DNA from: Candidatus Poribacteria bacterium
GTDB lineage: Bacteria > Poribacteria > WGA-4E > WGA-3G
DNA: 64,000 nucleotides
Direction of reading: 5' to 3'
Assembly: GCA_965215265.1 (NCBI GenBank)
Contig: OZ244048.1
Coordinates: 1,824,001 to 1,888,000 of the forward strand
Part shown: piece by piece, positions 1-32,301 of the stretch
How the letters are laid out: the number at the start of each line of letters is the position of its first letter
Numbering within the stretch: position 1 is the stretch's first letter
Program-made: the position numbers and the translations under genes
Notes under the pieces: model-generated
What the model was told of the DNA's origin: nothing
What the model saw: the letters and a program-made list of their open reading frames with translations, nothing else
The model's database searches: none

Positions 1-2265
1 GCCAATGGGTTTGATGCAGAACCACTCTCTATGAATCAAAGCATAAACGGCTCTGACGAGATATACACAGGAATTCACAACGCATCAGCCTTTAACGGGC
101 TCCAGTCTACGAAAAAACAGAACACGAGTCTGCACCTCGCAAACGTCACAGCCGATTTTGACGGCGATGGCTTGCCTGAAATTGTCGGCAAACCTATACA
201 CGATGCACCACACCCACTACTTTCCCTCTATGAGCGGCTCCCCACCGGAACCTATCAACTCGTGCAGCACCTGTCAATTGTAGATAGCACCACACACCTC
301 AATCAACTTGACGCAGCCACGTTTACACCATGGGATGTATCCGACACAGATAACGACGGTTTGTTAGAGATACTTGCTAGCGACGACAACCGTACGTTTC
401 TGCTGGAACAAATTAAAGAACTAGAAACGTTCAAGATGCAAGAAATCTGGGAAACGCCGTTTCTTTCTGGGGGTATCATCACGGATTTAGATGGTGACGG
501 GTTGGCTGAAATTGTCGGGGCAGATAACAATAATGACCGGCTCCTCATATTTGAGAATCGAGGCAATAACCAGTACGAACAGACGGTTTCTCTCCACAAC
601 GAAACAGAGGGCTCCAATGTGTTTGGGCACCACTTTGCAATTGACGACTTTAATGCTGATGGAAAACTTGAGCTCGTTGCTGGGGATAGTGAAGGTGAAC
701 TTTTCATCTATACGGCATCTGCAAACGACAACGTCCACCTGCAGTGGCAGACACGACTCAAAATCACGGAGCTTACGCAGTTTGCAGCAGGCGACTTAAC
801 CGGCAACGGCAAACCAGAATTTGTCGTGGGCGGCACCCTCGTGCCAGAGTCTCTGCCAGCTGCCTTTCCCCTCTGGAAATTCATCGTATGGACGCATACA
901 GCTCACGGCTACGTGCCGCTCTGGGAGCACGCCATCGCACCCTATCGCCGCTCAGCAAACAGCGTCCGCATCGCAGATGTAGATGGCGACACACAAACAG
1001 AACTCATCCTCCTCGCGCACCCCAACCTTTATGTCATGAAATGGAACGGCACAACCTTTCAGCCACTCTGGCACCGGGAGGTATCAGAAACACCTGCCCT
1101 CTTCACAGCAGACCTGAATCAGAATGGCTTTGACGAGCTGTACCTCAATATTAATGATGCCTTACATCGCATTGAATCGACCTTCGCGCGCGATAAAGAC
1201 TCTCCCGCCCCCCTCACACCGTGGAACGTTTCTGCCACACCCTTAACAGCCAAAGCCGTACAAGTCACCTGGACAGTACCACCCTTAGAAAATGCCTCGG
1301 ATTGGCGTGTATATCGCGCACATGGGCAAAAAAGCACAGCGCCTCCAGACACCGAGTTTGAAACAGTTGCTCAGAACCTGACCGTTAACCGATTTTTGGA
1401 TAGGAGCGTCGCCACAGACACAACGTACTGGTATGCCATCACCGCAATCGATAGCACCGGTAGGGAAACCGCACGAACCGAGCCCGTTTATGCAACACCC
1501 CGCAAACCACCAAAACTCATCCGCGCCGTCTATGACACCCAGACTCTTAACCCCGAAATATACAAAAACATAAACGGCTCCCATCGCATTTATACAGGTA
1601 TAAACAAAACATCAGGCGTTAATGGTACTGAAATATACAAAAATATGAAAATCTGGGTAATTGTCACCTTTAACCGGCAGATGGGCGACTCAATTAGCGA
1701 CAGCAGCAAATACCTCCTCCGTCTACCGCAGCGGATTGAAGGCACGCGCCCGCTCTCTGTTATCCGAGACAGAATGGGAACACGCGCACGCCTAGCCTTT
1801 GATGCTGCCAACCTTTTCCGACTTCATTCTCAACCTAATATCGAAAATGCAATCACCGACCGGCACATAACCCATTCGATTTACGAAATCACAGTATCCA
1901 ACGTCCGCGATATTGACAACAACCTACTGCGAGCAGCCGCACAAACGCTACAGATCCCGTTCAACATCGCGAACCCAACCTTAACCGATTTCACACACGT
2001 TCGCGTTTATCCCAACCCCGTTTATCCAAACCTCTCTGACAGAGGTACCATTACATTTGATGGTGTACCCGTCGGAACACGCATTCAAATCTTCAACGTT
2101 AACGCGCACCTCTTAGAAGAAATGAACGTCACCGAAAGCGATAATCATCGCAAGCAGTGGCACCTCACCAGCAACCGTACTGCAGACATCGCAACCGGTA
2201 TCTATATCTATGTGCTTGAATTCAAGAATGAAAAAAAAATCGGAAAAATTGCCATTATAAAATAA
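1..2265 (+). CDS. Secreted FG-GAP/VCBS-repeat protein with FN3 domain and C-terminal FlgD/T9SS-like Ig domain (5' end outside window)
   Basis: Frame is open from base 1. Repeated DxDGDGxxEI motifs, FN3-like 'PWNVSA..VTW..YWYAITAID', C-terminal 'VYPNP...GIYIY...GKIAIIK'. Contains two in-frame repeat-derived segments. Confidence 0.8.
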   Translation, partial: ANGFDAEPLSMNQSINGSDEIYTGIHNASAFNGLQSTKKQNTSLHLANVTADFDGDGLPEIVGKPIHDAPHPLLSLYERLPTGTYQLVQHLSIVDSTTHLNQLDAATFTPWDVSDTDNDGLLEILASDDNRTFLLEQIKELETFKMQEIWETPFLSGGIITDLDGDGLAEIVGADNNNDRLLIFENRGNNQYEQTVSLHNETEGSNVFGHHFAIDDFNADGKLELVAGDSEGELFIYTASANDNVHLQWQTRLKITELTQFAAGDLTGNGKPEFVVGGTLVPESLPAAFPLWKFIVWTHTAHGYVPLWEHAIAPYRRSANSVRIADVDGDTQTELILLAHPNLYVMKWNGTTFQPLWHREVSETPALFTADLNQNGFDELYLNINDALHRIESTFARDKDSPAPLTPWNVSATPLTAKAVQVTWTVPPLENASDWRVYRAHGQKSTAPPDTEFETVAQNLTVNRFLDRSVATDTTYWYAITAIDSTGRETARTEPVYATPRKPPKLIRAVYDTQTLNPEIYKNINGSHRIYTGINKTSGVNGTEIYKNMKIWVIVTFNRQMGDSISDSSKYLLRLPQRIEGTRPLSVIRDRMGTRARLAFDAANLFRLHSQPNIENAITDRHITHSIYEITVSNVRDIDNNLLRAAAQTLQIPFNIANPTLTDFTHVRVYPNPVYPNLSDRGTITFDGVPVGTRIQIFNVNAHLLEEMNVTESDNHRKQWHLTSNRTADIATGIYIYVLEFKNEKKIGKIAIIK
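40..118 (+). repeat. Modular AAATCTCG-family repeat fragment read in frame inside the CDS
   Basis: cataaacggctctgacgagatatacac...gggctccagtctacgaaaaa matches intergenic copies such as 12261-12335 and 4030-4098. Confidence 0.75.
1555..1645 (+). repeat. Second in-frame modular repeat fragment (EIYKNINGSHRIYTGINKTSGVNGTEIYKN)
   Basis: gaaatatacaaaaacataaacggctc...ggtactgaaatatacaaaaa matches the arm termini of intergenic copies. Confidence 0.75.
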
Positions 2266-2266
2266 T

Positions 2267-2660
2267 ATTTTCGTCTATAGGAGCCTGTAACAAGGCTGCT
2301 GCAATGTTAAAACCTGTGAAAATCTCGCCAGAGCCGTCCGGTATTATGAATCTATACATCAGAAAACTCCGAGCTATAGATGGCAAGGATAAGGTTATCT
2401 TGTCTCAGTGGGTGGAAGCCTTTTACGGACTGCAGTATACAAAAAAAAGACTATACCTAAGCAGTCTCCGACGAGATTTTTAGTATACGGTAGCACAACA
2501 AAGACTGATTTTATGAACAACCTCGCACAAACCTCGTTCTTTCGTCTACAGGAGCCCGATGCCAGTTGCTGCAATGTTAACCCATTTACAAATCTCGCCA
2601 GAGATTTTCACAGTCATTGACACAACCTAAGGCGTTACAGGGCTGAAATATATGAAAAAT
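2267..2660. repeat. Modular repeat cluster (arms, core, hairpin-element fragment)
   Basis: Several ttcgtctacaggagccc...aaatctcg and cgagattt...tatac units. Confidence 0.9.
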
Positions 2661-3536
2661 GAATTTATTCTGATAGTAAACCCGATTTCTGGTGCCGGTA
2701 AAGCGAAAGCCGTAGCAGAACAAGCTTACGCGACACTCACCGCAGCAGGTCAGCACGGAAGTTTACACTTAACAACAGGACGCGGCCACGCAAAACACAT
2801 CGCAGAGGATGCAGTCCGAGCCGGCATAAAAACCGTAATCGCCTGCGGCGGAGATGGCACACTCCACGAAGTCGTTAACGGAATCGTCAACGTGCCCGAA
2901 ACCATATTAGGCATACTACCATGCGGACGCGGCAACGACTTCGCCGCCGCCATCGGTGTGCAACGCCAACCACAAGCCGCCATTCAAACACTCTTAACAG
3001 GCAAAACAATACGCGTAGATTACGGTAGAAGCCGCGCACACTGTTTCATCACCATTGCCACATGCGGTTATGATTCTGAAGTGAGCCGACGCGGCGCACA
3101 ACGCAAACCGCCATTTAAAGGAACTGCAGCCTATCTTACCGCCGCTATTGCCACACTCTTTGATTACGAGCACCCATACGCAAAAATTGAAGGCGATTTT
3201 GGATGCTATGAAGGCCATCTGCTCCTCGCAGCCACCGGAATTACAACCCGATATGGCGGCGGATTTCGCATCCTTCCTCAGGCATCTTACAATGACGGCG
3301 TTTTCGATGTCTGCATCATACGGCCCGTCCCAAAAATCACCATCCTTCGACTTTTGGTAACACTCTTCTGGGGAGGGCATATCTCACATCCAGCCGTAGA
3401 AATGCACCAGACCCGGACATTAAAAATTGAAACCGAACCTACCATGCACCTTTACGCCGACGGCGAACCATTGTCTACCACCCCCGCCATACTTGAAATC
3501 GTCCCACAAGGCCTCACCGTCCTCGCACCCCCCTAA
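2652..3536 (+). CDS. Diacylglycerol/lipid kinase family protein (YegS/BmrU-like)
   Basis: Motifs NPISG, GGDGTLHEVVNG, LPCGRGNDFA, YGGG, ADGE. Confidence 0.92.
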   Translation: MKNEFILIVNPISGAGKAKAVAEQAYATLTAAGQHGSLHLTTGRGHAKHIAEDAVRAGIKTVIACGGDGTLHEVVNGIVNVPETILGILPCGRGNDFAAAIGVQRQPQAAIQTLLTGKTIRVDYGRSRAHCFITIATCGYDSEVSRRGAQRKPPFKGTAAYLTAAIATLFDYEHPYAKIEGDFGCYEGHLLLAATGITTRYGGGFRILPQASYNDGVFDVCIIRPVPKITILRLLVTLFWGGHISHPAVEMHQTRTLKIETEPTMHLYADGEPLSTTPAILEIVPQGLTVLAPP

Positions 3537-3537
3537 C

Positions 3538-4110
3538 TTTTTTGTATATTTAAGCCCGATAACGCCTTATGTATTGTCAATGACTGTGTAAATCTCGTCG
3601 GAGATTCCTTAGGTTTTGATTTTAAAGACAATACCTAAGTCGGCTCAGACGAGTTTTATGTTTTTGTATATTTCAGCCCTATAATGCTCTATGTTATGTT
3701 AATTACCGTGTAAATCTCGTCGCCCGCCCACCCAAATCCTTTGATGTTATGAATGTATACATCGAACGGCTCTGGTTGGCAGGTTCGGTTGACGGGTCAG
3801 GTATTGCCTCAGGTCAATACCCAATGGGTGGCAGGTAAAAGATAGAGACATCGTATCCTTTAGGATACGATGTCTCTATCTATCCCTCAACCTATCTCTC
3901 AACCTTATCCTGCCAATCTATAGACGAGATTTATGCTAAGGTTAACATTGCAGCAGGCTCTATTGGGCTCCTGTAGACGAAAAACCTAAGGCGTTACGGG
4001 GGATCCAGTATACAAAAAATGAATCTAAACATAAACGGCTCTGGCGAGATGTACATCGGATTTAACAAAACAAACGCCTTGTTGCGGGCTGCACTATACT
4101 AAAAAACGGC
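3538..4110. repeat. Modular repeat cluster with nested hairpin elements and a near-perfect 40-bp palindrome (3841-3880)
   Basis: Arm/core units plus gatagagacatcgtatcct-tt-aggatacgatgtctctatc. Confidence 0.9.
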
Positions 4111-5821
4111 CGTAGCGTTCTATAATCACATTTCGTTTTAGTTTCAGCGTCGGAGTCACCTCATTCTTTTCCGGCGTGAACGCTTGTTCGAGGAGTGCGA
4201 ACCTTCGGACCTGTTCAAAATCCGCAAAATCTCTTAAGCGCCCCCGGAGCTCACCCTGAAAGAGCTGCTGCACCTCCCGCCCCGACATATCAGAGAGTTC
4301 AACCTCGTTTTCGGCACCCCATACCTTCAACGCATCAAAATTCGGGACAATCAACGCAGCCAAACTCTTCTCTTCACTCCCCATTACCATGACCTGGTCG
4401 ATATACGGACTTCGCGCCAGCTCGTTCTCTATCGGCTGCGGTGCCACATTCTTCCCATTGGAAAGCACAATAATATTCTTTTTCCGATCCGTAATTTTAA
4501 GAAACCCATCCGAGTCAATCATACCGATGTCCCCTGTATGAAACCAACCCTCCGCATCGATCACCTCCGCCGTTGCATCCGGATTGTTAAAATATCCCTT
4601 CATAACATGCGGACCGCGCGTCAGAATCTCGCCATCCTCAGCGATATGCACCTCGATACCAGGCACAGGCTGTCCAACAGTCCCGAATTTCCAATGCCCC
4701 GGATGGTTCAGGCTAATCACCGGTGATGTCTCTGTCAATCCGTATCCTTCGAGAATCAGAATCCCCGCAGCATGGAAAAATTCAGCAGTGGCTTGGGGTA
4801 ATGCCGCACCCCCAGAGATGAAAAATCGCAGCCTCCCTCCTGTCGCAGCCTTCAACTTTCCGAAAACGAGTTTGTCAGCAATCCCTCCTTTCAATCGCAA
4901 TAACGGAGAAGGATTCTTGCCATGTTGTATCGCGGTACTCACCGCCGTGCCGACACCAACGCCCCAATGAAAGATTTTCTGTTTGAGAGGTGAACCTGCC
5001 CGCACAGTCCGTAAAATTCGGTCGTGCATCGTTTCATAAAGACGCGGCACCGCCAACATCACCGTCGGCGAAACCTCCTTCATATTATTTGCCACAGTCG
5101 CGATACTTTCCGCATACGCCACCTTCGCACCGGAGAATAACGGCACATAATGCCCACCCAACCGCTCAAACACGTGTGATAGCGGGAGAAACGATAACAA
5201 TACATCCGATTCACGCACATCGACAAGCGATTTACATGCCTCCAAGTTTGAAATAAAATTGGCGTGTGTGAGCATCACGCCCTTCGGTTCGCCTGTTGTT
5301 CCGGACGTATAGATAATTGTTGCAGTGTCATCTTCATCCACCGTAGGACACGGTAGCTCTGCCTCCAATTCACAGACTGCTTCAAAACCTATAACGTTAG
5401 GCGGCAGCTCAACTTCCGCCGGATGGAAGCGGATTATCTTCTCAAGAACATCCGATTGAATCTCCAACGCCTTCTGCATCTGTCGCTCTGTAGAGACGCA
5501 GAGAATCTTTGAACCTGAATCTTTTAGAATATAACCGACTTGTGCCGCCGTCAACGTGGAAAATAGTGGGACGGTGATAGCACCTGCTGCAAGAATGCCA
5601 AAGTCGGCGATAGCCCATTCAGGACGATTCTCCGACAAAATCGCCACCCGATCGCCTTTCTGAATACCTAACGCGAGGAGCCCATTACGAAATGCAGTGA
5701 TGGATGTACCGAGTGCCGTGTACGAGATATCCTGATAGTTTTCCCCTTTAGGTTTGTATGCCAACGCAGCTTTTTCGCCGTATTGCTGAATTGAATGCTC
5801 TAATAGAGAGGTTAATGTCAT
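4094..5821 (-). CDS. Long-chain fatty acid--CoA ligase (AMP-binding, FadD15-like)
   Basis: Motifs YTSGTTGEPKG, EGYGLTE, GWFHTGDIG, TPTLKLKR. Confidence 0.93.
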   Translation of the reverse strand: MTLTSLLEHSIQQYGEKAALAYKPKGENYQDISYTALGTSITAFRNGLLALGIQKGDRVAILSENRPEWAIADFGILAAGAITVPLFSTLTAAQVGYILKDSGSKILCVSTERQMQKALEIQSDVLEKIIRFHPAEVELPPNVIGFEAVCELEAELPCPTVDEDDTATIIYTSGTTGEPKGVMLTHANFISNLEACKSLVDVRESDVLLSFLPLSHVFERLGGHYVPLFSGAKVAYAESIATVANNMKEVSPTVMLAVPRLYETMHDRILRTVRAGSPLKQKIFHWGVGVGTAVSTAIQHGKNPSPLLRLKGGIADKLVFGKLKAATGGRLRFFISGGAALPQATAEFFHAAGILILEGYGLTETSPVISLNHPGHWKFGTVGQPVPGIEVHIAEDGEILTRGPHVMKGYFNNPDATAEVIDAEGWFHTGDIGMIDSDGFLKITDRKKNIIVLSNGKNVAPQPIENELARSPYIDQVMVMGSEEKSLAALIVPNFDALKVWGAENEVELSDMSGREVQQLFQGELRGRLRDFADFEQVRRFALLEQAFTPEKNEVTPTLKLKRNVIIERYGRFLV

Positions 5822-5850
5822 AGCGTATTTCTCCTGCTTGATTTGTTTCT

Positions 5851-5879
5851 ATAGTAGCATATTGTCCAATGTAAGTCAA
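5851..5879 (-). promoter_or_regulatory. Sigma70-type promoter of the acyl-CoA ligase
   Basis: TTGACT-17 bp-TACTAT with extended TG, 30 bp upstream of ATG. Confidence 0.65.
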
Positions 5880-5884
5880 ATCTC

Positions 5885-6319
5885 GTGAATTTTGTTTCCC
5901 ACCGTCACTCCGGCCTGATAAGGGGCGGGCGGTTACCTCCGAAATAGAAGAAAGCTTAGGATTTTATCTCCTGTGGGTCTGTACCTTCGTCCCGACACGC
6001 CATCTCGCATCCCTCGCCTATCGGAGTGGATACGGCTTCGCAGAACATCTCTTTGCTTTTATGCTCATGCCACCGGTGATACTAGTGGGCACCCATGCCT
6101 CAGGGACCTACTCATCACAAAAACACCTTTGGCAGGCAAACTTCGTCCACACACCCGCACCATATCCCTTCGATGAACGCAGGCAAGTCTTGCAGACAAT
6201 AAGGATCTTTTTCTGGTTTCATATTAATAGGCTCTCTGGCAAAAGTCTCCGAAGGCTTCCAGTGTCAATCCAACAGCATGTTCTACAAAAGAGTCAAAGG
6301 GATTCCTGATTTCTTCATT
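5885..6319 (-). ncRNA. Possible structured non-coding RNA (unassigned)
   Basis: No credible ORF. TATAAT on - strand at 6326-6331. Several stems with G-U pairs on the - strand and an internal degenerate duplication. Confidence 0.3.
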
Positions 6320-6360
6320 TACGAAATTATAGAGAGAATCGGAAAATCACCGTTTTTTTA

Positions 6361-6390
6361 TTGCATCTGTCTTATATCCTGTGTTAAACT
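6361..6390 (+). promoter_or_regulatory. Sigma70-type promoter upstream of candidate large ncRNA
   Basis: TTGCAT-18 bp-TAAACT with extended TG, same architecture as the arc promoter. Confidence 0.6.
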
Positions 6391-6395
6391 AACGT

Positions 6396-6890
6396 GAGTT
6401 GTATCAAAGATAAGCGTGTTTGGTATAATCGGGTTAGAAAACTGAACCCAAAGGAGTTGTCCCTGAACATTATATCTCTTTTCTGAGTCCAAAACTCACT
6501 GAAGCGTGATTCGGCAAACGGTTTGCCGACAAAGCGGAAACTCTCTCAAGAGGGGTTTGATCCGTTATTGAAGGACGAGTTGCTGTGAGTGACATAGATT
6601 CGCAAGCACCTGAAAAACGCGTTCAGGTACGTTACTGAGAAACGCAGCCTAAAAAAATCGTGTAACTTGAGCATGTGAAAATGCCTTTAAAGAGTCTCTG
6701 TCTGTTGGAACGCAGGCGGCATCGGAATATAACAAACTTTTTGATGAACATCGCGGCTGCGTGGAGTGCGTCACCGTATCAAGAGAAGAAACCTTCTCTG
6801 AATATACGCCTCTCTCAGAAAATCCGAAATATGCCAGGGGACGCTTTCTAAATTTTTAAACCGAACTCATGTCAAACTAATACAAGTTGC
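6396..6890 (+). ncRNA. Candidate large structured ncRNA (~500 nt, possibly extending to ~7045)
   Basis: Nested long-range helices 6399/6885, 6418/6877, 6429/6864, 6459/6842, 6479/6822 enclose at least 8 hairpins and a probable pseudoknot. No ORF of 60 aa or more. Confidence 0.65.
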
Positions 6891-7055
6891 GACAAGCGCC
6901 CTAGTTTTCGTATTTTTGTAAACGCATTGCAATCTGTGCCGTATAAGTTTTTTAAATTGCAGAGTGGCGTTGATGTCAATTGCCTTACATCAAGGCTATT
7001 GTGTTGCAAATCGGGTGCTGTTGTGCTCTAGAAAAACCCGAAATAAAATAATCAT

Positions 7056-7085
7056 TTGCAAAAATTGTCTAAACTGTGGTAAACT
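7056..7085 (+). promoter_or_regulatory. Sigma70-type promoter of the proteasome operon
   Basis: TTGCAA-18 bp-TAAACT with extended TG. GAGGAG RBS at 7113-7118. Confidence 0.6.
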
Positions 7086-7127
7086 CTATGTTAAAGTCAT
7101 TCCGTTCTGCCTGAGGAGACGTTCCTA

Positions 7128-8969
7128 ATGTACGGGAAAAAAAATCCAAAAGCTTCTGGCGTGAATCGCCAGAAGCCGGACCTGATTTTAGATGATGACG
7201 AAGAGCTGGAAGAATTGGATGAGGAGCTTTTTGAGCCCGCGGGAGACGCTCCGAGTTCTGGATATTCGTTGCAATTAATTCACCATATCCTGACAGAGAC
7301 ACCGGACGCAGACCGTCGTCACCGTTGGCTTCTTGAGCTCCGTCGTTCCATTCTCAGAGATGAAGGCGAATTTCAGGAGCGGGTGCACGCCATCCAGGAG
7401 GAGGCACTCCGCATACACGCGGAGATGGAAGAGCAGATAGAACAACTGACCGCCCCTGCGAACCGCATCGGCACGCTGCTCGGTTTGCCCAAAGAAGATA
7501 TCGCACGCGTGATTGTCGGAGGCTCCGAATACTACGCAAACGTTGCACCTGAACTCAGCAAGAATGTACTGAAAAAAGGCATCAGCGTGCTGTTGAACGA
7601 TGCATTTGTTGTTGTCGGTGAATTGGGATATAACGATTCGGGACCGATTGCGAAAATTGTAGAGGTGATGGGGGATGGCCGCCTTCGCGTTGGCCAAGAA
7701 CCGAACGTTCAAGGTATTCTCTTGGAACGTTCCGCCGACTTAGTTGATGTACCGCTGAAGGCAGGGGATGAAGTTCGTATAGACGCACACTACCGTGTTG
7801 CACTGGAACATATCGCTGCGAAGGAATCAGATGCCTATGCACTGGAAGCGGTGCCGGACATACCGTGGTCAAAGGTTGGTGGTCTTGATGAAACGATTCA
7901 GTTGATTAAAGATACGATTGAACTCCCCATCCTACATCCAGAGTTATTCGAAAAGTTTCAGTATAGCGCACCGAAAGGGTTCCTTCTACACGGTCCGCCA
8001 GGGTGTGGCAAGACGCTCATTGGTAAAGCCACGGCACATAATTTGACAGCACGGCTCCGGGCGGAAACGGGTAGCGATGTTGAGGGATGCTTTCTTCACA
8101 TCAAGGGCCCTGAGATTCTCAACATGTGGTTGGGTGAATCGGAGCGAAAAGTACGCGAAATCTTTCAGATTGCGCGCGAAAAGCGCCAAGATGGCAAGTT
8201 GGCGTTTGTGTTTATTGATGAGGCCGAATCCATCTTAGGTACCCGGCGTGCATTGCGTTCGCACAGCATCTCAAATACGCTCGTTCCGATGTTCTGCGCC
8301 GAGATGGACGGTATTGAATCATTACAAGATGTTGTCCTTATCCTTGCAACGAACCGGCCAGACTTGATAGATCCGGCGATACTACGCCCAGGCCGGATCG
8401 ACAGGAAAATTAAGGTGACGCGTCCGAACGAGGTTGCCGCAAAAGAGATCTTCCGGATTTATCTGACACCGGAACTACCGCTTGCGCCTGAATTGCTACA
8501 CGCTGAAGAAGAGGATGCTGCAGAGAGCAGCTCCGACGAAGGTGACCAGTCCCAAAGGAAGCGGATAGAAGCATGTATAACTGAGTTAATTACACACGTC
8601 GTTGAAGAGATGTTCCATGAAGATGAGAATAACCGGTTTTTGGAAGTCTCGCTCCGTAGTGGCCGGCGCGATATCCTATACCGGGGCCATCTTTGCAGCG
8701 GCGCAATCATCGAGTCTATTGTGCAGCGCGCCAAAGAATATGCACTGAAGCGCGCAATCCGCGAGCCGGAGCGTGAGACAGGCATCTCACGGGCAGATTT
8801 GCTTGAGGCACTCAGTGCCGAATATAGTGAAAGTGAGATTTTTCCACCGACTGAGGCAACTGAAGACTGGCTTAAGTTGCTGGATTATGACCCGGCCAAC
8901 GTCGTTAAGGTAACACCGATTAAACCTGAAAAGCAGGAACGGCGCAAAGTCTCTACACGCGTAATTTAA
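7128..8969 (+). CDS. arc: Proteasome-associated AAA+ ATPase (ARC/Mpa)
   Basis: N-terminal coiled coil and OB region, GPPGCGKT, KGPEILNMW, FIDE, DPAILRPGRIDRKI. First gene of the Pup-like operon. Confidence 0.95.
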   Translation: MYGKKNPKASGVNRQKPDLILDDDEELEELDEELFEPAGDAPSSGYSLQLIHHILTETPDADRRHRWLLELRRSILRDEGEFQERVHAIQEEALRIHAEMEEQIEQLTAPANRIGTLLGLPKEDIARVIVGGSEYYANVAPELSKNVLKKGISVLLNDAFVVVGELGYNDSGPIAKIVEVMGDGRLRVGQEPNVQGILLERSADLVDVPLKAGDEVRIDAHYRVALEHIAAKESDAYALEAVPDIPWSKVGGLDETIQLIKDTIELPILHPELFEKFQYSAPKGFLLHGPPGCGKTLIGKATAHNLTARLRAETGSDVEGCFLHIKGPEILNMWLGESERKVREIFQIAREKRQDGKLAFVFIDEAESILGTRRALRSHSISNTLVPMFCAEMDGIESLQDVVLILATNRPDLIDPAILRPGRIDRKIKVTRPNEVAAKEIFRIYLTPELPLAPELLHAEEEDAAESSSDEGDQSQRKRIEACITELITHVVEEMFHEDENNRFLEVSLRSGRRDILYRGHLCSGAIIESIVQRAKEYALKRAIREPERETGISRADLLEALSAEYSESEIFPPTEATEDWLKLLDYDPANVVKVTPIKPEKQERRKVSTRVI

Positions 8970-8971
8970 AA

Positions 8972-9335
8972 AATTTGTCTACTGCAGCACAATACCAATT
9001 GCTGCAATGTAAACCTTAGCACAAATCTCGTTCTTTTGTATAGTGCAGCACCACAACACCGATGGCTGTAATGAATACCCTCGCACAAATCTCGCTTTTT
9101 CGTCTACAGGCACCCGTAACAAGGCTGCTGCTTTTGATAAGTCCTTTACAAATCTCGTCTGAGCCTCCTGATGTTATGATTTTAAAGGCTATACCTAGAG
9201 CGGCTCCGACGAGATTTACACACGAGCCATCAAAAGCATAAGCGGTGATGGTACGGAGATATACGAAAAAACGAGATTTACACACGACTCATCAAAAGCA
9301 TAAGCGTTGATGGTACCAAGATATACAAAAACAAG
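8972..9335. repeat. Most complete modular repeat: arm-D, arm-A, core, arm-C, arm-C'
   Basis: AAATCTCG at ~62-bp spacing pointing inward from both sides of the core (9150-9217). Confidence 0.92.
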
Positions 9336-9344
9336 AAAACAAAA

Positions 9345-10880
9345 ATGCAAAGGCTTTTTGGCATTGAAACTGAATACGGCATTACCGTCGAAAATGAGAA
9401 GCACATCGATGCCGTCAATCAATCGATTGAACTGATTAAAAGTTACCGGCGAGAGTGGGAATCTGTTCCGGCTCGTGATGCTGTCAAACCCATCTGGGAC
9501 TATGGGGGCGAAGACCCATTTCGCGACGAACGCGGGTTTCGGGCGGAAACGTTGTCTAACCATCCAGATGAAAAGATGGAAGAAGCACGCGATCGTCAGA
9601 AAAACCTCTCTTTCGTTGAGATTAAGAGCGACCGGATTTTGGTGAATGGGGCACGACTTTATAATGACCACGCGCATCCTGAATATTCGACACCAGAATG
9701 CACGCGCCTGTTTGACTTAGTCGCGCATGATAAAGCCGGTGAGCAGATTCTACAGCGGTGTGCAACAGCACGCAGTGAGAACCTTGGAAAACGCGTGCTC
9801 TTATACAAAAATAATACCGATTTCCATGGGCATAGTTACGGCTGCCATGACAATTACCTCATGGCACGAGAAGTACCTTTCGAATACCTTAAACAGAGCA
9901 TTCTGCCATTCTTTGTAACCCGTCAGATCTTCGCAGGGGCTGGCAAACTGGGCGTTGAAACTGAAGCAGGACTCGCAACACCCGGCCTATATCAGCTGTC
10001 ACAACGTTCCGATTTCTTTCACGTTGAAGCGAGCGTAGATACGATGCACAAACGTCCAATCGTCAATACGCGGGACGAACCGCACGCAGATGCCACGAAA
10101 TACCGGCGGTTACATGGCATTGTTGGAGACGCGAATATGTCAGAGTATGCAACGGCACTGAAAGTTGGTACCACAGCGCTCGTCATCTCTCTGATAGAAC
10201 AGCAGCGCATCCCGGAAAGACTTGGGCTCGCGAATCCGATTGATACTCTTAAAACGGTGTCCCATGACCAGACGTACCGGTGGAACGTTATGACTGTGGA
10301 CGGAAAAACGATGTCTGCCGTTGAGCATCAACGTGAATACCTGGCCCTGGCACAAAAATATTCAACAGACATGGACTCGGATACACTTGAGTCAGACTGG
10401 GTTCTTGCCGAATGGGAAGCAACACTAGATGCACTGGAGAGAGAGCCGATGAGGTTGACCGACCGGCTTGACTGGGTGGCGAAGAAGTGGTTACTAGAAA
10501 CTTTCGCAGCAGAAGAACGACTTGATTGGGAAGATCCGTGGTTGCAAAGCCTTGATTTAGAATATCATAACATTCATCCAGATGAAGGTTTGTTCTATGG
10601 ACTACCTATGCGCCGTGTTGTGACCGAGGAGCAGATTGATAACGCAACCCGCACACCACCCATGGGCACACGTGCCTATTTCCGTGGGACTGCTGTGCAG
10701 CGGTTTTCGGAAGCGATAACGGCTATTCAGTGGGATAGCATGACTTTCACTGTAAACGGCCGCTCAATCCCTGTAAATCTCAATGGGCTTGCTGCACCTG
10801 AAGTTGCAGCCCGCTATAACCAAACACTTGACGAATCACCGAATGTTGAAACGCTAATAAAAAAGTTAGGTCTTTTGTAA
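9345..10880 (+). CDS. dop: Pup/UBact deamidase/depupylase Dop
   Basis: Motifs FGIETEYG, NGARLYNDHAHPEYSTPEC, HKRPIVNTRDEPHAD, DLEYH. Confidence 0.92.
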   Translation: MQRLFGIETEYGITVENEKHIDAVNQSIELIKSYRREWESVPARDAVKPIWDYGGEDPFRDERGFRAETLSNHPDEKMEEARDRQKNLSFVEIKSDRILVNGARLYNDHAHPEYSTPECTRLFDLVAHDKAGEQILQRCATARSENLGKRVLLYKNNTDFHGHSYGCHDNYLMAREVPFEYLKQSILPFFVTRQIFAGAGKLGVETEAGLATPGLYQLSQRSDFFHVEASVDTMHKRPIVNTRDEPHADATKYRRLHGIVGDANMSEYATALKVGTTALVISLIEQQRIPERLGLANPIDTLKTVSHDQTYRWNVMTVDGKTMSAVEHQREYLALAQKYSTDMDSDTLESDWVLAEWEATLDALEREPMRLTDRLDWVAKKWLLETFAAEERLDWEDPWLQSLDLEYHNIHPDEGLFYGLPMRRVVTEEQIDNATRTPPMGTRAYFRGTAVQRFSEAITAIQWDSMTFTVNGRSIPVNLNGLAAPEVAARYNQTLDESPNVETLIKKLGLL

Positions 10881-10922
10881 ATGAGCGTCACCACAAGGTG
10901 GTGCCAATCAAAGGAGAGAGAC

Positions 10923-11120
10923 ATGGCACGCATGATAATCGCTGAACTTGAACGCAAGCAGAGAGATGTCAAACCCATCGGCCCCGATGGTGGCGATGGT
11001 AACGACGACGGTCCAAAACGCCAAGATGTGAAGCGACCGGATACGCAAGAACTCCTGAAACGGATGCGCCGGGTTGACAAAGACCAGTCGCGTCGCTATC
11101 GGCAAAGAACCGGACAGTAA
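10923..11120 (+). CDS. ubact: Ubiquitin-like protein UBact (Pup analogue)
   Basis: 65-aa disordered protein ending YRQRTGQ (R[T/S]G[E/Q] signature). AAGGAG RBS. Lies between dop and prcB. Confidence 0.92.
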   Translation: MARMIIAELERKQRDVKPIGPDGGDGNDDGPKRQDVKRPDTQELLKRMRRVDKDQSRRYRQRTGQ

Positions 11121-11128
11121 GGCATCTG

Positions 11129-11303
11129 TCATCGGTTGGCGGGGTTCTGTTTTCTTGCCATGAGACAAAGAAAACCTATCCTGCCACTCGTCTGAGCCAT
11201 TTTAGGTTTTGATTTTAAAAGACTATACCTAAGGAGCCTCCGACGAGATTTACACACGATTAAACAATACATAAGCGGTGATGGTACGGAGATATACGAA
11301 AAA
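11129..11303. repeat. Hairpin element fused to core and arm-C
   Basis: tggcgggg...cctgccac followed by tcgtctgagcc...cgagattt...atatacgaaaaa. Confidence 0.85.
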
Positions 11304-11305
11304 AC

Positions 11306-12151
11306 ATGAACCACGTTGACTGGCTGGAATTGGGCAGCAGAGAGGAGCGTTCCGTAACGAACCACAACGGAGACTTTCTGAGGCTCCTCAAACACGTCAA
11401 AGCACCCCTGCAGCTCGGGATGCCTACGTCCACGACTCAACATAGCACCGTTGCTGAAGTCGCAGAAGCACATAGCACGACTGTTATCGCGGTGCATTAC
11501 CGGGACGGTGTGATGGTTGCAGGGGACCGGCGCGCAACTGCTGGTACTTCGGTTATCTACGATAGAGCAGATAAAGTGCTGCAGGTTGATAACACTTCTG
11601 TACTCGCTATTTCCGGTTCACCTGCTATCGCGTACGAGATAGCTAGAATTTTGGAGCATTCGTTCCAATACTTTCGTCGGAGCCAACTCCAAGAACTGAG
11701 CCTGGAAGGTAAACTCCGGATGTTATCTCGATTGATACGGGAGAATCTGACGATGGCACTTCAGGGCATCGGAGCGGTTATCCCTATCTTTGCCGTATAC
11801 GATACTACTACGGAAGAGGCGCAGAAGGCGAAGATTTTCTTCTACGACGCACTAGGTGCGCACTTTGAGAATGTAGATTTCGCAACCACCGGTTCCGGCT
11901 CTATCTGGATTCGGGGCGTCCTCCGTTATCTAAACCGATGGGGCGAAACGTCCCTGCAATCCATGGATGAACGTCAGGCAACCTGCACCGTTTTGAGACT
12001 TTTGGACACCGCGAGTGAGTACGATGCCGCCACAAGTGGGTACAACGCCGCCGCACAGATTTTCCCGACTATAAAAACCGTCACAGCTGCCGGGGTTCAA
12101 ACGCTTACCGACGGATTCTTGGCTGCATGCTACGCTGAAGCGGTTTCATAG
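11306..12151 (+). CDS. prcB: 20S proteasome beta subunit
   Basis: Propeptide then HS|TTVIA, AGDRRAT, TGSGS. Confidence 0.93.
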   Translation: MNHVDWLELGSREERSVTNHNGDFLRLLKHVKAPLQLGMPTSTTQHSTVAEVAEAHSTTVIAVHYRDGVMVAGDRRATAGTSVIYDRADKVLQVDNTSVLAISGSPAIAYEIARILEHSFQYFRRSQLQELSLEGKLRMLSRLIRENLTMALQGIGAVIPIFAVYDTTTEEAQKAKIFFYDALGAHFENVDFATTGSGSIWIRGVLRYLNRWGETSLQSMDERQATCTVLRLLDTASEYDAATSGYNAAAQIFPTIKTVTAAGVQTLTDGFLAACYAEAVS

Positions 12152-12154
12152 ATG

Positions 12155-12340
12155 TATTAAATCATAGCATCAAAGGATTTGGGCCCTAATCCAAAGACGA
12201 GATGTATCTATAGATAAATCTCGTCGGAGGTTAACTAGGTAATGTCTTTAAAATCGTAGACATAAACGGCTCAGACGAGATTTTCACAGGTTTTTACATT
12301 ACAGCCGCCTTGTTACGGGCTCCTGTAGACGAAAGAACGA
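12155..12340. repeat. Modular repeat cluster between prcB and prcA
   Basis: Core plus arm ending gggctcctgtagacgaaag. Confidence 0.88.
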
Positions 12341-12344
12341 AAAT

Positions 12345-13139: not shown

Positions 13140-13145
13140 CCGAAA

Positions 13146-14594: not shown

Positions 14595-14667
14595 GCAGGC
14601 TCCGCCGAGATTTACACGGTAACTAACAAAAACATAAATCTTTATAGTACGGAGATATACAAAAACC
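14580..14667. repeat. Half core plus arm overlapping the pafA 3' end
   Basis: aaagactatacctaagcaggctccgccgagattt...gagatatacaaaaa. Confidence 0.88.
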
Positions 14668-14761
14668 TGAAAACAATTTATACCACGTCTAGGCAGGAAC
14701 TCATCAAAGCACAGCCGCACATAACAAAAAGTGTATTCGAATATTTGGAGAAGACAGCACG

Positions 14762-15688: not shown

Positions 15689-15689
15689 T

Positions 15690-19200: not shown

Positions 19201-19463
19201 GATTTGTCGACGGTGGCGGCACCACACAGCCTGAATACTCGTTCTGGTTCGTGGATGTCGGATGGCGCGTGGAAAACTACGGCACCGATCCAGACATTGA
19301 AGTAGACTACCGTCCGCAAGATTATGCTACGGACAGCGATCCGCAGCTGGACCGGGCGATTTCGGAGCTCCTGCAGCAGATGGAAGAAAAACCACCACAA
19401 CTGCCCGATTTTGGGGAACGTCCGCGTTTGACGCTGCCGACGCTGCCCAAGGAGTCATCGTGA
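16201..19463 (+). pseudogene. Tricorn protease (S41, beta-propellers + PDZ), split by a 1-nt frameshift near 16904 (pseudogene or sequencing error)
   Basis: The N-half (WKRYRGG) continues in the frame of the 17109 ORF as KRIVYHAGAELF. The C-half has GELGTSH, AGSDGD, RTWGG. Confidence 0.85.
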
Positions 19464-19566
19464 TTGGGAGCTCATTCCCATAGTGGCACAACACACGAGC
19501 TATCATTACATAGACGTTGATGGTACGAAGATATACGAAAATCATGGAGACAGTAGGAACTTCCCT

Positions 19567-20769
19567 ATGCGCATCCTCTGTGCGAACGTAGGCAGCACCT
19601 CGTTCAAGTACCAGATTATAGATATGGAAACCGGTGCCTCCCTTGTGAAGGGCGGTATAGAACGGATCGGACATTCGCTGTCGGCTTACACGCACGCGGT
19701 ACCGGGAAAGCCATCTCGTGAAGGGGATATCCATGCGCCGACGCATACCGATGCGATTGCGCACGCGATGCGCCTCATTACCGATATAGAAGTGGGCTGC
19801 CTCGCAGAGCTCGGTGAGTTGGACGGTGTTGGGTTCAAAACCATTCTTGCCAAAGGGTATTGGCGTTCCGCACGGATTACGGAAGATGTCATCGCAGCAT
19901 TAGAAACGTCTACGCCACTGGCTCCGATGCACAATCCTGCATATATTGCAGCGATTCGCGCCTTTCAAGAGTTGCTTCCAGAGATGCCGCTGGTTGCTGT
20001 ATTTGAGACGTGGTTCCATCAAACCGTCCCTGATTATGCCGCTGAATTCGGTGTACCGCGTTTCTGGGTAGAAAAACACGATGTCCGTCGATATGGCTAC
20101 CACGGGGCTTCACACCGATATATCTCCGAACGGGTGCCTGCAATGCTGGGACGTGAGTCGGGCAAAGGGCTTCGGATTATCTCATGCCACCTCGGAGGCA
20201 GTTCTTCTCTCTGTGCAATCAGAGACGGGGAATCCATTGACACCTCAATGGGCATGTCGACGCAATACGGTATGATTCAATCGACACGTTGCGGGGAGTT
20301 GGACGCGTTTGCAGTACTCTATGTGATGGACAAAGCCGGGTTTTCTACGGATGAGATTCGTCGCCAGTTAATAGAAGACTCTGGGATGAAAGGCATCTCT
20401 GGGACGAGTGGAGACATGCGTGATGTGGAAGAGGCAATCAAAGCCGGAGATGACAACGCACGCTTGGCTTTAGAAACCTACATTTATGGTGTGAAAAAGT
20501 ACATCGGTGCGTACATCGCTGTGCTGAAGGGTATTGATGTCATTGCGTTCGCAGGGGGCATCGGTGAGAAGAGTGCATTGACACGCGCAAAAATCTGCGA
20601 AGGACTTGAGTGGTGTGGCATTCACATTGATGCCGCCAAAAATCAGCGGACACTGGGTGAGGCGCATATTTCTGCAAGAGATAGCCGCACCAAAATCCTT
20701 GTTGTCTCCACCAATGAAGAGATTATCGTTGCGCGTGAGACTGCACGAGTGATAATAGCAGATCTATAG
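19567..20769 (+). CDS. ackA: Acetate kinase
   Basis: NVGSTSFK, LAPMHNP, RRYGYHGASH, CHLGG, DTSMG, TNEE. The ORF-track extension from 19483 translates a repeat arm. Confidence 0.93.
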   Translation: MRILCANVGSTSFKYQIIDMETGASLVKGGIERIGHSLSAYTHAVPGKPSREGDIHAPTHTDAIAHAMRLITDIEVGCLAELGELDGVGFKTILAKGYWRSARITEDVIAALETSTPLAPMHNPAYIAAIRAFQELLPEMPLVAVFETWFHQTVPDYAAEFGVPRFWVEKHDVRRYGYHGASHRYISERVPAMLGRESGKGLRIISCHLGGSSSLCAIRDGESIDTSMGMSTQYGMIQSTRCGELDAFAVLYVMDKAGFSTDEIRRQLIEDSGMKGISGTSGDMRDVEEAIKAGDDNARLALETYIYGVKKYIGAYIAVLKGIDVIAFAGGIGEKSALTRAKICEGLEWCGIHIDAAKNQRTLGEAHISARDSRTKILVVSTNEEIIVARETARVIIADL

Positions 20770-20774
20770 ATTGG

Positions 20775-21070
20775 TTTTTCGGCTATAGGAGCCCGTAACA
20801 AGGTTTATGTAATGCTAAGTCCTTTACAAATCTCGTTCTTTCGTCTACAGGAGCCCAATGACGCTCTATGTTTTGTAAAATCTGTGAAAATCTCGTCTGA
20901 GCCGTCTGGGGTTTTGACTTTAAAGACATTACCTAGTGCGTCTCCGACGAGTTTTACACACGAGTACTCATGACATAAGCGTTGATGGTACCAAGATATA
21001 CAAAAAAACGAGATTTACATCGGATTAACCACAACCTAAACCTTTACGGTACGGATATATACAAAAAAAC
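20775..21070. repeat. Modular repeat: arm-A, arm-A', core, arm-C, arm-C'
   Basis: AAATCTCG/CGAG(A/T)TTT junction motifs at ~60-bp spacing. Confidence 0.92.
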
Positions 21071-25096: not shown

Positions 25097-25343
25097 TGAT
25101 AGGTAGGGGTTTAACCTTTCGTATAGTGCAGCACAACACCGATGGATTTAATGAACCACCTAGCACAAATCTTGTTCTTTCGTCTACAGGAGCCCGTAAC
25201 AAGACTGCCCAGTGGGTGGCAGGTAAAAGGTAATCTTTTTTCATGGACAGAAAAAGAATACCTATCCTGCCACTGCAATGTTAAAACCTGTGAAACGGTA
25301 ATTAACATAACCAATAGCGTTATAGGGCTGACATAGACAAAAA
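25097..25343. repeat. Arm-D plus arm-A interrupted by a hairpin element (25209-25273)
   Basis: Removing 25209-25273 restores aagactgctgcaatgttaaaacctgtgaaa. Confidence 0.9.
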
Positions 25344-25592: not shown

Positions 25593-25597
25593 TAATA

Positions 25598-29651: not shown

Positions 29652-29749
29652 GATTGGTGTTATACCAAATGAATTGAACGAGTCCCGGACCTCTCCGCTA
29701 GCGGAGAAGAGGGGAAACGTAGGCGCGTACTATAAACGGATTGCTCCGC

Positions 29750-29809
29750 CCAGTGGGTGACGAGTAAAAGGTAATCTTGCCATGAGACAAAGAATACCTA
29801 TCTCGCCGC
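29750..29809. repeat. Hairpin element copy with compensatory stem changes
   Basis: ccagtgggtgacgag...ctcgccgc inserted at C|TG. Confidence 0.85.
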
Positions 29810-29899
29810 TGGCGCGGCGAAGAATCACGAATTACAACATGGGCGGTTGCTTTCGCGGGCTGCCCGTATTTTGTTATGTATCTAAAGAGGTTCTCTAGA

Positions 29900-30328
29900 C
29901 CTAAGACGGCTCTGGCGAGATTTGTGCTAGGGTGTTAGCTACATACGGCGTTATTATGCTACTGTAGACGAATAATAGACAAAAAGAAATACTTGACAAT
30001 TCCGTGCAAATTCCTTAAAATTCCTGAAATTATACTAAATTAACCGGAGTAGCGTTGTTTTGAGGCGTGCTCAGGGGCTGATTTTTCGTATATCTCCGTA
30101 CCATCACCGCTTATGCTTTTGATGGTTCGTGTGTAAATCTCGTCGGAGATGACTTAGGGAATGTCTTTAAAAATCAAAACATCAAAAGGCTCCCAGTAGA
30201 TGGCAGGTAAAAGGTATTCTTTTTTTGTCCATGAGAAAAGATAACCTATCCTGCCACTGACGAGATTTGTAAAGTTATTAACCTAGCAGCAGCCTTGTAT
30301 CGGGCTCCTGTAGACGAAAGAACGAAAA
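29900..30328. repeat. Modular repeat clusters; core interrupted by a hairpin element (30193-30257)
   Basis: Arm-D at 29917-29972; arm-C, core, arm-A at 30082-30320. Confidence 0.9.
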
Positions 30329-31977: not shown

Positions 31978-32041
31978 TTCATGAAGTTATATCAATGGCG
32001 ACTGCTGTAATTTTTCAAACAGAGAGAGCCAAATTACAATC

Positions 32042-32301
32042 TTTTGTATATCTCCGTACCATCAACGTCTAGGTAATCATAGCTCGTGTGTAAATCTCGT
32101 CTGAGCCTACTTAGGCATAGTCTTTTGAAATCAAAGCATCAGAGGGCTCCGACGAGATTTGTAAAGGATTTAACATTGCAGCAGCCTTGTATCGGGCTCC
32201 TGTAGACAAAAGACCTTTATGGGGCTCCTGTAGACGAAAGAACGAGATTTGTACTAGGGTGTTAGCTACATACGGCGTTATTGTGCTACTGTAGACGAAT
32301 A
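32042..32301. repeat. Modular repeat: arm-C, core, arm-A, partial A, arm-D (last copy seen in window)
   Basis: Same arm order as 9031-9331 in inverted orientation. Confidence 0.92.

Follow-up and report, generated by a model that had tools for sequence, protein, structure and literature searches.

A probably mobile family of modular intergenic repeats in a Candidatus Poribacteria chromosome, compared with BOX, NIME and BIME elements

Mosaic interspersed repeats in general have been known for decades. BIMEs, an enterobacterial sequence family, consist of palindromic units (PUs) that alternate in orientation with defined extra-PU motifs between them; in RAYT biology, the mobilising enzyme is encoded by a single-copy gene; and integrons are recognised by an intI integrase, attI and attC sites whose core sites read GTTRRRY. 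All that is known of Poribacteria, a candidate phylum, comes from metagenomes and single cells. The closest described counterparts of the repeats presented here are BOX, NIME and REP-type elements. BOX elements (boxA - boxB(n) - boxC) are described as composite, modular and non-coding, with modules of about 50-60 nt in variable tandem number and a length of tens to hundreds of nt, as having inverted terminal modules, as forming clusters into which other repeats are inserted and as including some copies open on both strands; the present repeats resemble them in all of this and differ from their reported plan of a single type of tandem module in the centre and two unlike ends, with terminal inverted repeats and target-site duplications (PMC3049150). 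NIMEs offer a second likeness, with a short conserved box between variable segments in families, dynamic length, mixed repeats and a proposed role as recombinase targets, their segments being reported to measure 19-214 bp and to fall into more than 100 families (PMC1797815). The dRS3 element, a 20-bp palindrome (ATTCCCN8GGGAAT) flanking RS elements (PMC1797815), belongs to the CGTC-tagged REPs (PMC3733652).

REPs are described as hairpins of 20-40 bp with a GTAG or CGTC tag, the CGTC families having 8-9-bp stems, 4-5-nt loops and a CCA tail (PMC3733652). Likenesses to REPs, REPINs and BIMEs include the extragenic position between co-directional or convergent genes and inside operons, inverted doublets forming a long hairpin (the core in our case), mosaics with accessory motifs, occasional intragenic copies and, as proposed below, a mobilising enzyme elsewhere in the genome (PMC3733652). 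RPE and similar in-frame MITEs recall one further trait, a copy that lies in frame, leaves the gene open and adds a peptide in a linker; in-frame repeat insertions are described in Rickettsia (PMC3049150), and RPE-4 and RPE-6 have been classed as CGTC REPs (PMC3733652). Unlike RPE, the present family is overwhelmingly intergenic, with in-frame copies in only one gene (two copies).

The window, i.e., the whole stretch analysed here, comprises 64,000 nt of a Candidatus Poribacteria bacterium (GCA_965215265.1, contig OZ244048.1, positions 1,824,001-1,888,000, forward). A reading of the sequence alone had proposed a family of arm and core modules at 14 named loci, and at least one significant arm or core match was recovered at each of the 14. 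The box AAATCTCG is present in 28 copies against 3.0 expected, a number reached by none of 100 shuffles, the last copy lying no later than 32250; TTTYGTMTA is present in 32 copies against 2.05 expected, and both ends at arm spacing (CGAGATTT N40-50 TAKACRAAA) give 19 matches against 0 expected. An arm profile of 58 nt, obtained by iterated nhmmer from 13 seed arms with a cut-off of E<0.01 and ending in TTTYGTMTA and AAATCTCG, yields 37 matches, 31 of them near full length and all within 57-32299. Since matches to successive arms are always 3 nt apart, the real arm period is 61-64 nt. All arms fit this one profile, with conserved ends and about five interior types, GTAG being present in types A and E only, and the interiors recur between loci at 75-100% identity. 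The pattern CTCGTCKGAG N30-50 CTCMGACGAG has 7 matches against 0 expected and marks the core, a ~68-nt imperfect palindrome in 7 intact copies, whose outer 13 bp (AAATCTCGTC.GAG / CTC.GACGAGATTT) are nearly invariant, with CGTC adjoining the stem and an interior of ~40 nt. Further split, half or interrupted cores were detected by the core HMM at 35-62, 2320/2446, 14579, 29864 and 30135.

Two minus-strand copies are located within an FG-GAP/S8-peptidase ORF (1-2265): a weak half-core (35-62, E 0.015) and one arm (57-114, E 6.5e-13) lie in frame at 35-114, and an arm tail, a half-core and an arm (1588-1642, E 1.7e-9) lie at 1556-1642. The following gap is filled by an array at 2269-2657 (364 of 386 nt covered) that consists of arm A, a core split by inserted material (2320-2372 / 2446-2479), D, A, a minimal core and B, the final arm including the DAGK start codon (2652). 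A B-core-B composite occupies 3540-3719 on the plus strand, and at 3820-4103 an F2-like hairpin (F2 being a second repeat family, treated below) with a nested perfect palindrome is followed by reverse arms (3925-3982 and 4045-4103) and a half-core, reaching the stop of the convergent AMP-binding gene. The fullest array, at 8974-9330 between mpa and dop (348 of 375 gap nt covered), carries arms D, D and A, a core (9150-9217) and two reverse arms C. A partial F2, a core (11186-11251) and a reverse arm C at 11150-11301 end 4 nt short of the prcB start codon; a core of inverted polarity with a reverse arm A lies between prcB and prcA at 12216-12334; and a half-core with a reverse arm at 14579-14664 includes the pafA stop codon (14592-14594). 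The stretch 15734-16101 holds an F2-like element, a second B-core-B composite (15826-16001) and a partial arm (16067-16101), and a solo truncated C-type arm (19492-19540, minus strand, E 1.4e-8) stands upstream of the acetate kinase gene. Between convergent genes at 20777-21066 (284 of 314 gap nt covered), arm A and an A/B-hybrid arm precede a core (20888-20955) and reverse arms C and C-like. Arm D, an arm A split by F2 and a truncated reverse arm B make up 25117-25342; an F2 copy (29747-29811), a weak core (29864-29923) and a reverse arm E make up 29747-29972; arm C, a core interrupted by F2 and a reverse arm A make up 30084-30319; and the last copy of the window, at 32042-32299, reads arm C, core (32092-32160), reverse arm A, partial arm A and arm E. 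The order D>A>core<C<C', which the sequence-only reading had ascribed to the fullest copies, is exact at 8974-9330 only and fails at 20777-21066 and 32042-32299. Arms face inward as a rule, as had been stated, except in the two B-core-B composites, where both point the same way; at array termini, only the 9-nt TTTYGTMTA ends are inverted.

By description, the arrays share modularity and a variable number of modules with BOX, but the layout is reversed, with tandem flanks around a single palindromic centre; they also differ in having several arm types and in that no target-site duplication is seen. Membership in the NIMEs is rejected because a search for the dRS3 motif that allowed up to 1 mismatch finds none in the window; conserved boxes that separate variable segments are common to both as a general plan, and the core does recall dRS3 in the CGTC at its start beside the stem. 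Unlike dRS3, the recurring junction (AAATCTCG + TTYTTTYGTMTA) is not palindromic, and, unlike NIMEs, the arrays are symmetric about the core and their segments are uniform (~61 nt) and of common ancestry. A REP unit is rejected on the grounds that the arms lack a shared hairpin, that GTAG is restricted to A and E arms and that the core, 68 nt in length, has an outer stem of 13 bp around an interior that is large and varies; a BIME is rejected because the arms stand in direct tandem on each side and an array gave no blastn match in 5,426 E. coli genomes. The exclusion of classic REP/BIME thus held for sequence and detail, but the novelty claimed with it was overstated: arrays inside operons in which conserved boxes alternate with variable interiors of ~35-40 nt from a few families, and into which other repeats are nested, are of the same kind as NIME, BOX and BIME (PMC1797815, PMC3049150, PMC3733652). 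The sequence-only reading was right to set CRISPR and attC aside: would-be CRISPR spacers recur between loci at the identities given above, units invert around the core and no cas domain is found in the window, and the arm junctions read CG|TTCTTT (...CTCG|TTCTTTCG) with no GTTRRRY and no integrase in the window. What is new is a repeat family with an unusual layout; as mosaic interspersed repeats have long been known, it is a new family and not a new principle.

Several observations point to movement. The two B-core-B composites are copies, in opposite orientation, of one 181-nt arm-core-arm unit, with ~99% identity (2 mismatches and one 4-nt indel); the identity begins at TTTTTGTATA and breaks off at AAATCTCGT, sharply and precisely where the arms end, and the flanks are unrelated. 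Other pairs of arms from different loci are 96-100% identical (9210/30084, at 98%, 29916/32243 and 3662/15826). Gene conversion between pre-existing repeats, instead of transposition, could also produce such near-identical copies. The copy at 1556-1642 corresponds to a ~36-aa in-frame insert, LNPEIYKNINGSHRIYTGINKTSGVNGTEIYKNMK, that is absent from 17 of 23 aligned FG-GAP/S8 peptidase homologues, the named ones being annotated as Candidatus Poribacteria; the other 6 have different inserts at this site, which shows that the position is a loop that varies in any case. At 35-114, the other intragenic copy brings no length difference from the homologues, so no insertion is demonstrable there. Clean insertion is also seen for F2, a separate hairpin repeat family of ~65 nt interleaved with the arm/core family, which is nested inside one arm (25207-25275) and one core (30191-30259), as BOX, RUP and SPRITE are likewise described to nest in other repeats (PMC3049150). 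At 10 arrays, no consistent flanking direct repeat was found as a target-site duplication, the longest being A/T runs of 3-6 nt, and the best-preserved composite (3540-3719) has direct ends and no terminal inverted repeat; a classical DDE MITE is therefore rejected, and a mechanism without duplication is favoured over DDE cut-and-paste. As had been claimed, no cognate enzyme is encoded in the window, where Pfam reveals no transposase or recombinase domain among 45 ORFs of at least 100 aa. No empty DNA site was found either.

On balance, we consider it probable that these are lineage-specific, non-coding, modular interspersed repeats of the BOX/NIME/BIME kind, maintained as a non-autonomous selfish element in a Poribacteria-like chromosome. 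Among the options raised by the sequence-only reading, a non-autonomous mobile element is the best supported, through indirect evidence from the near-identical sharp-ended composites, the in-frame insertion and the exclusion from divergent promoter gaps. The master copies are likely composites of ~180-360 nt, made of one or more arms, a core and one or more inverted arms, with A-core-C and B-core-B as recurring forms; an enzyme whose gene lies elsewhere in the genome would copy them to new sites, and by inference only this enzyme may be a single-strand transposase of the HUH/RAYT or IS200/IS605 type, or else a site-specific recombinase. Copies would persist only where they are tolerated, in co-directional or convergent gaps or in frame in the variable linker of a secreted protein, and later trimming, duplication and recombination at the conserved boxes may have generated the truncated and hybrid arrays, which F2 would also have invaded.

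The distribution of the family is uneven. In the first half (1-32.3 kb), modules cover 2845 of 6133 intergenic nt (46%), with 42-94% coverage in each of the 12 occupied gaps. Among gaps of at least 150 nt there, all 11 co-directional or convergent gaps are occupied and neither of the two divergent ones is (Fisher p=0.013), the kind of location described for REPs with their same bias toward non-divergent gaps (PMC3733652). Arm and core profile searches of the whole window confine the family to 35-32299: no arm or core appears in 32320-64000 even at E<=50, the best match (E 0.44) lying in coding DNA, and five comparable non-divergent gaps there are empty (p=2.3e-4). The claim that the repeats saturate intergenic space thus applies to the non-divergent gaps of the first 32.3 kb and neither to divergent gaps nor to the second half. 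Such patchiness would not be expected of a freely transposing element, and it speaks for a reading in which the modules are cis elements selected by the host, either sites bound by a protein of nucleoid, partition or regulatory function that mark a ~32-kb domain or RNA elements for differential operon expression, kept uniform by recombination and not by transposition. The regular 61-64-nt spacing of the conserved boxes and the invariant core stem agree with it, as do the arrays that occupy all long gaps of the Pup-proteasome operon and extend as far as stop and start codons, with the pafA stop and the DAGK start inside modules. A change of sign in the GC skew at ~6.3 kb, beside a 1.3-kb non-coding gap, might likewise suit a chromosomal domain, but none of the window's 14 DnaA boxes falls within 5822-7127 at the switch. 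Promoter-like sites (20 against 22.8 expected) and terminator-like sites (16 against 21.8 expected) are not enriched, and copies that are truncated, split by another repeat or inserted in a coding region have an unusual look for functional sites.

Folding also speaks against host selection. The cores do fold as long hairpins (z -1.7 to -6.1; 5 of 7 beat all 200 shuffles), and five folded arms have no common hairpin (z +0.8 to -3.34); however, arm interiors and inner core halves vary freely, the inner helices are only 71-76% paired, and no covariation was detected in the core, where the 81.8% of cells that are paired is equalled by 429 of 500 shuffles. With no covariation and an invariant outer stem, a selected core fold is not demonstrated. 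At the gathering score, Rfam 15 has no match over the 64 kb, and at E<=1 over 1-32400 it has one, a C/D snoRNA model at chance level (E 0.14) in coding DNA; the family is no RNA gene of a known family. It is also non-coding: the commonest frame is open in only ~12 of 31 arms. Against mobility, no translated copies turned up elsewhere: 5.8 billion proteins gave 7 candidates and 0 hits, and the two weak matches among 1.84 billion representatives are both unrelated tandem-repeat proteins. Selection by the host appears unlikely. Under the favoured reading of selfish elements, a co-transcribed core, e.g., in the gaps of the Pup-proteasome operon, could still form its long hairpin and, as a side effect, may change how the mRNA is processed or how stable it is, an influence reported for REP/BIME, ERIC and Correia elements (PMC3049150).

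Another possibility is that the arrays are stacked products of site-specific recombination in the manner of NIMEs or integrons, with the AAATCTCG / TTTYGTMTA junction as the recombinase site and ~61-nt non-coding cassettes added singly beside the core on both sides, a mode of origin that has been proposed for NIME arrays (PMC1797815). This would account for inward-pointing arms that abut exactly, with no spacer, each restoring the AAATCTCG end from which the outer stem of the core is also built; neighbouring arms are of different types and hence no recent tandem duplications, and arms next to the core are slightly more identical to copies elsewhere than distal ones (best identity 0.89 vs 0.85), but the latter difference is not significant (p=0.11). 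It is improbable, as the same neighbours recur at several loci (D-A at 2479, 9034 and 25117; A-core-C at 9098, 30084 and 32042), which fits composites that may have been copied as units, as the 181-nt twin was moved or converted whole, while the junction is neither palindromic like dRS3 nor a GTTRRRY site and the window encodes no such recombinase. The sequence-only reading had also seen some arms as block chimeras, and in several (3925, 14606, 4045 and 20839) the nearest relatives of the 5' and 3' halves do differ, which is suggestive, but a strict test was passed by none of 31 arms, and the identities of the two halves are correlated (r=0.46). A bolder combination, in which a dedicated recombination system stacks the ~61-nt non-coding cassettes inward around the palindromic core and is confined to, and perhaps marks, a ~32-kb domain by the GC-skew switch, the boxes being sites of a putative recombinase or domain-organising protein and the arrays no decaying transposon copies, seems to us more doubtful still. 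An artefact, be it chance similarity, a chimeric assembly or collapsed reads, at which the sharp boundary at 32.3 kb could hint if two sequences had been joined, is scarcely credible in view of 37 diverged copies at 15 loci that lie among intact genes and operons and differ by substitutions and indels of their own, of tetranucleotide profiles of eight 8-kb chunks that correlate at 0.71-0.87 and show no discontinuity at 32 kb, and of shuffles that yield about 0-3 matches against the 19-32 seen.

If the repeats are indeed mobile elements of this kind, Poribacteria own a modular intergenic repeat family that, over 32 kb, takes up nearly half the intergenic DNA. Such families break assemblies and bins, create spurious ORFs, shift gene starts and stops and can lengthen proteins by extra peptides. 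They also point to a mobilising enzyme, and their hairpins can alter the fate of operon mRNAs. Of interest for a genome-wide survey are the layout with tandem arms placed symmetrically on either side of a palindrome, the missing target duplications and the confinement to a sharply bounded region. Two smaller points complete the inventory: F2 had not been told apart from the arm/core family in the sequence-only reading, and the partial arm at 16067-16101 is an addition to the loci listed there.

The arm/core repeats of this region most likely constitute a non-autonomous modular interspersed repeat family, one that is real, undescribed and unusual in layout, although its kind has long been known. 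The arm, a non-coding module of ~61 nt, ends in TTTYGTMTA on one side and in AAATCTCG on the other, and both motifs, proposed as arm ends in a sequence-only reading, are strongly over-represented in the window, AAATCTCG with 28 copies against 3.0 expected and TTTYGTMTA with 32 against 2.05; the two occur together at arm spacing 19 times, with 0 expected. An arm profile seeded with 13 clear arms and then iterated with nhmmer (cut-off E<0.01) gave 37 matches, 31 of them near full length and all lying within 57-32299, and all 14 loci named in that reading were confirmed. Since a single 58-column model aligns every arm, the interior types A, C and D distinguished there, together with B and E added here, are sub-types within one family. 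Coding repeats were ruled out for the arms, whose period is no multiple of 3 and most copies of which contain stops. The core, the module flanked by arms, is matched seven times in the window by its pattern (0 expected), and additional split, half or interrupted cores are detected by a core HMM.

In a full array, that is, arms and core at one locus, one or more forward arms are followed by the core and then by one or more reverse arms, with TTTYGTMTA turned toward the neighbouring genes and AAATCTCG toward the core. The core is an imperfect palindrome of 68 nt, whose outer stem (AAATCTCGTC-x-GAG / CTC-x-GACGAGATTT) is near invariant, 10 of the 15 modelled pairs being without any variation, and contains a constant T/C mismatch that confers polarity; the inner halves are variable and pair at only 71-76%. 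It may be asked whether the host maintains these repeats as selected protein-binding or RNA elements, and in this respect the single-stranded core folds well (z -1.7 to -6.1, with five of seven cores better than all 200 shuffles) and its covariation is not above that of shuffles. As the observed pairing was reached by 429 of 500 shuffles, the present data show a palindrome and do not demonstrate a selected fold. Folding of the arms gave no hairpin common to them, by which they were ruled out as REP-like hairpins, and neither promoters nor terminators were enriched when 1-20000 was scanned. Host selection of this type is conceivable and, in our judgment, unlikely. Nothing was found in Rfam for the arrays. 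A sigma-70-like site (TTAGCA, 17 nt, TATAGT; 9/12) at the junction of two D-type arms (9016-9044) may be due to chance, because no overall enrichment of promoter-like sites is seen.

From one arm match to the next there are always exactly 3 nt, and neighbouring arm and core matches have the 8-nt AAATCTCG in common, by which they overlap, so that the arrays are seamless strings of 61-64-nt units. Within them, some neighbourhoods recur: D precedes A at 2479, 9034 and 25117, A-core-C stands at 9098 and has inverted counterparts at 30084 and 32042, and B-core-B is found at 3540 and 15826. A tendency for the youngest arm to lie next to the core did not reach significance. The proposal that some arms are block chimeras is plausible for a few of them, but the strict test was passed by none of the 31 arms. 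Seamless strings bring to mind the stacking of cassettes by a recombinase, yet no transposase or recombinase domain was found among the 45 ORFs scanned in the window, and cassette stacking appears to us quite improbable.

A non-autonomous interspersed family, our preferred reading, has to be viewed in its genomic setting. The named homologues of the FG-GAP/S8 peptidase gene, the first ORF of the window (1-2265), are annotated as Candidatus Poribacteria, and as the best matches are only 52-55% identical, the host is a distant, uncultured relative; PafA was uninformative, its commonest taxa in the ESM Atlas being only Verrucomicrobiota or Armatimonadota. The neighbours of the arrays are housekeeping genes, and in a Pup-proteasome operon that is complete (mpa, dop, pup, prcB, prcA, pafA) an array fills each of the long gaps. 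Within 1-32.3 kb, modules make up 2845 of the 6133 intergenic nt, occupying all 11 co-directional or convergent gaps of at least 150 nt and neither of the two divergent, promoter-bearing gaps. Arrays extend from a few nt past the upstream stop to a few nt short of the downstream start, and they have remodelled gene ends, since the start codon of a diacylglycerol-kinase-like gene (2652) lies within the arm at 2601-2657 and the pafA stop codon (14592-14594) within the half-core at 14579-14613. In 32320-64000 the family has zero matches even at E<=50, and five comparable non-divergent gaps of 150-830 nt are all without it (p=2.3e-4). That the family is an artefact is vanishingly improbable; tetranucleotide composition is similar in both halves of the window, and a chimeric assembly of the window found no support. 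The occurrence of the full Pup-proteasome gene set (7128-14594) in a Poribacteria-like genome is an observation in its own right, pup encoding 66 aa with the end ...TGQ and tricorn protease genes following at 16201-19463; at 14762-15688 a gene for an N4/N6 DNA methyltransferase, seemingly an orphan, has arrays on either side.

As a non-autonomous family, the repeats would be mobilised in trans, now or until recently, copies would be tolerated only in non-promoter gaps and one protein linker, and deletion and recombination at the conserved boxes would reshape them later. A 181-nt arm-core-arm composite occurs at 3540-3719 and, inverted, at 15826-16001, with two mismatches and one 4-nt indel; the identity of the pair begins and ends precisely at the arm termini, with unrelated sequence on either side. 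Further arm pairs from distant loci are 96-100% identical. Counting against mobility are the lack of a TSD at the arrays inspected, the negative result for transposase and recombinase domains in the 45 ORFs scanned, and the fact that identical copies could also be produced by gene conversion. The FG-GAP/S8 peptidase gene contains two in-frame copies, alike in orientation and reading frame. The copy at 1556-1642 corresponds to a ~36-aa insertion missing in 17 of 23 aligned homologues, the remaining six having unrelated inserts at this site; the copy at 35-114 leaves the length unchanged relative to the homologues and is uninformative on insertion. No TSD was found at any of 10 arrays, and the 181-nt composite, the best preserved, has neither a target duplication nor a terminal inverted repeat, which points away from DDE cut-and-paste and favours, as the putative mobilising enzyme, either a single-strand transposase of the HUH type or a site-specific recombinase, given the generally known properties of these enzymes. 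The significance of the family would grow if, genome-wide, the copies proved to be truly confined to a domain or a new enzyme for their mobilisation came to light.

Several known systems share features with this family. BOX, as described in PMC3049150, is a modular composite with other repeats inserted within it, and the array layout is also a modular composite with nested repeat insertions. NIME, as described in PMC1797815, has conserved boxes, proposed as recombinase sites, between families of variable segments, and the arrays also consist of conserved boxes separating variable segment families. REP, REPIN and BIME elements, as described in PMC3733652, are extragenic, located within operons and arranged as inverted doublets, as is the present family. 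However, the arm/core family lacks the dRS3 of NIME, has neither a tagged hairpin of REP size nor the E. coli homology of REP/REPIN/BIME, and is without TSD, and therefore, by their defining features, it is not a member of BOX, NIME or REP/REPIN/BIME. Its distinction from these systems lies in symmetric tandem arms round one palindrome, with all arms descended from one 58-nt unit.

Searches for relatives elsewhere were negative. A core-pattern scan of a genome collection, whose chance estimate took no account of base composition, returned at least 93 loci, and the arm HMM recognised no arms among the matches listed, all of which were rejected as GC-rich palindromes arising by chance, the majority in Actinobacteria and Acidobacteria. 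Translated copies fared no better: a 90-aa array ORF compared with 5.8 billion proteins of 49-158 aa gave seven candidates and no hits, and a 30-position arm-peptide profile gave two matches among 1.84 billion representatives, at E 5e-4 and 8e-4, each to a tandem-repeat protein without relation to the arrays. The fullest array had no match in plasmids, phages or E. coli genomes (blastn, distant mode), no tRNA or tmRNA was found, and no published description of an intergenic, palindromic or MITE-like repeat family of Poribacteria was found among titles and abstract openings in the literature outside subscription journals.

A second family, F2, unrelated to the arm/core family but interleaved with it, is a ~65-nt hairpin repeat (CCAGTGGGTGGCAGGTAAAAGGTA ... 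TACCTATCCTGCCAC; folding z -3.7 and -4.6) with copies at 25207-25275, 29747-29811 and 30191-30259 and partial or weak copies at 2377-2407, 3820-3844, 11150-11188 and 15734-15811. It too has no copy in 32320-64000, so that neither repeat family is present in the second half. Clean F2 insertions, with no obvious target duplication, lie within the arm at 25178 and the core at 30135, and this nesting, which bears on the question of mobility, shows the neighbourhood of the arrays to be receptive to insertions. A perfect palindrome at 3838-3880, with a stem of ~17 bp (AGATAGAGACATCGTATCC / GGATACGATGTCTCTATCT), is nested in an F2-like element between convergent genes. A 61-nt direct repeat of 97% identity (35665-35725 and 36242-36302, 577 nt apart) is placed in and beside the 35941-36767 gap.

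The 1.3-kb stretch at 5822-7127, between divergent genes, has no ORF of at least 100 aa and no Rfam match, and contains a degenerate arm-like piece ending at 5885. GC skew changes sign within it, at ~6.3 kb, but a replication origin was rejected, none of the window's 14 DnaA-box-like sites (consensus from general knowledge) falling there. On the minus strand at 55416-62392, two large genes lie side by side, one for a PLD-nuclease/SNF2-helicase fusion of 1113 aa, the other for a methylase of 1141 aa resembling Eco57I/MmeI; together they look like a restriction or defence module.
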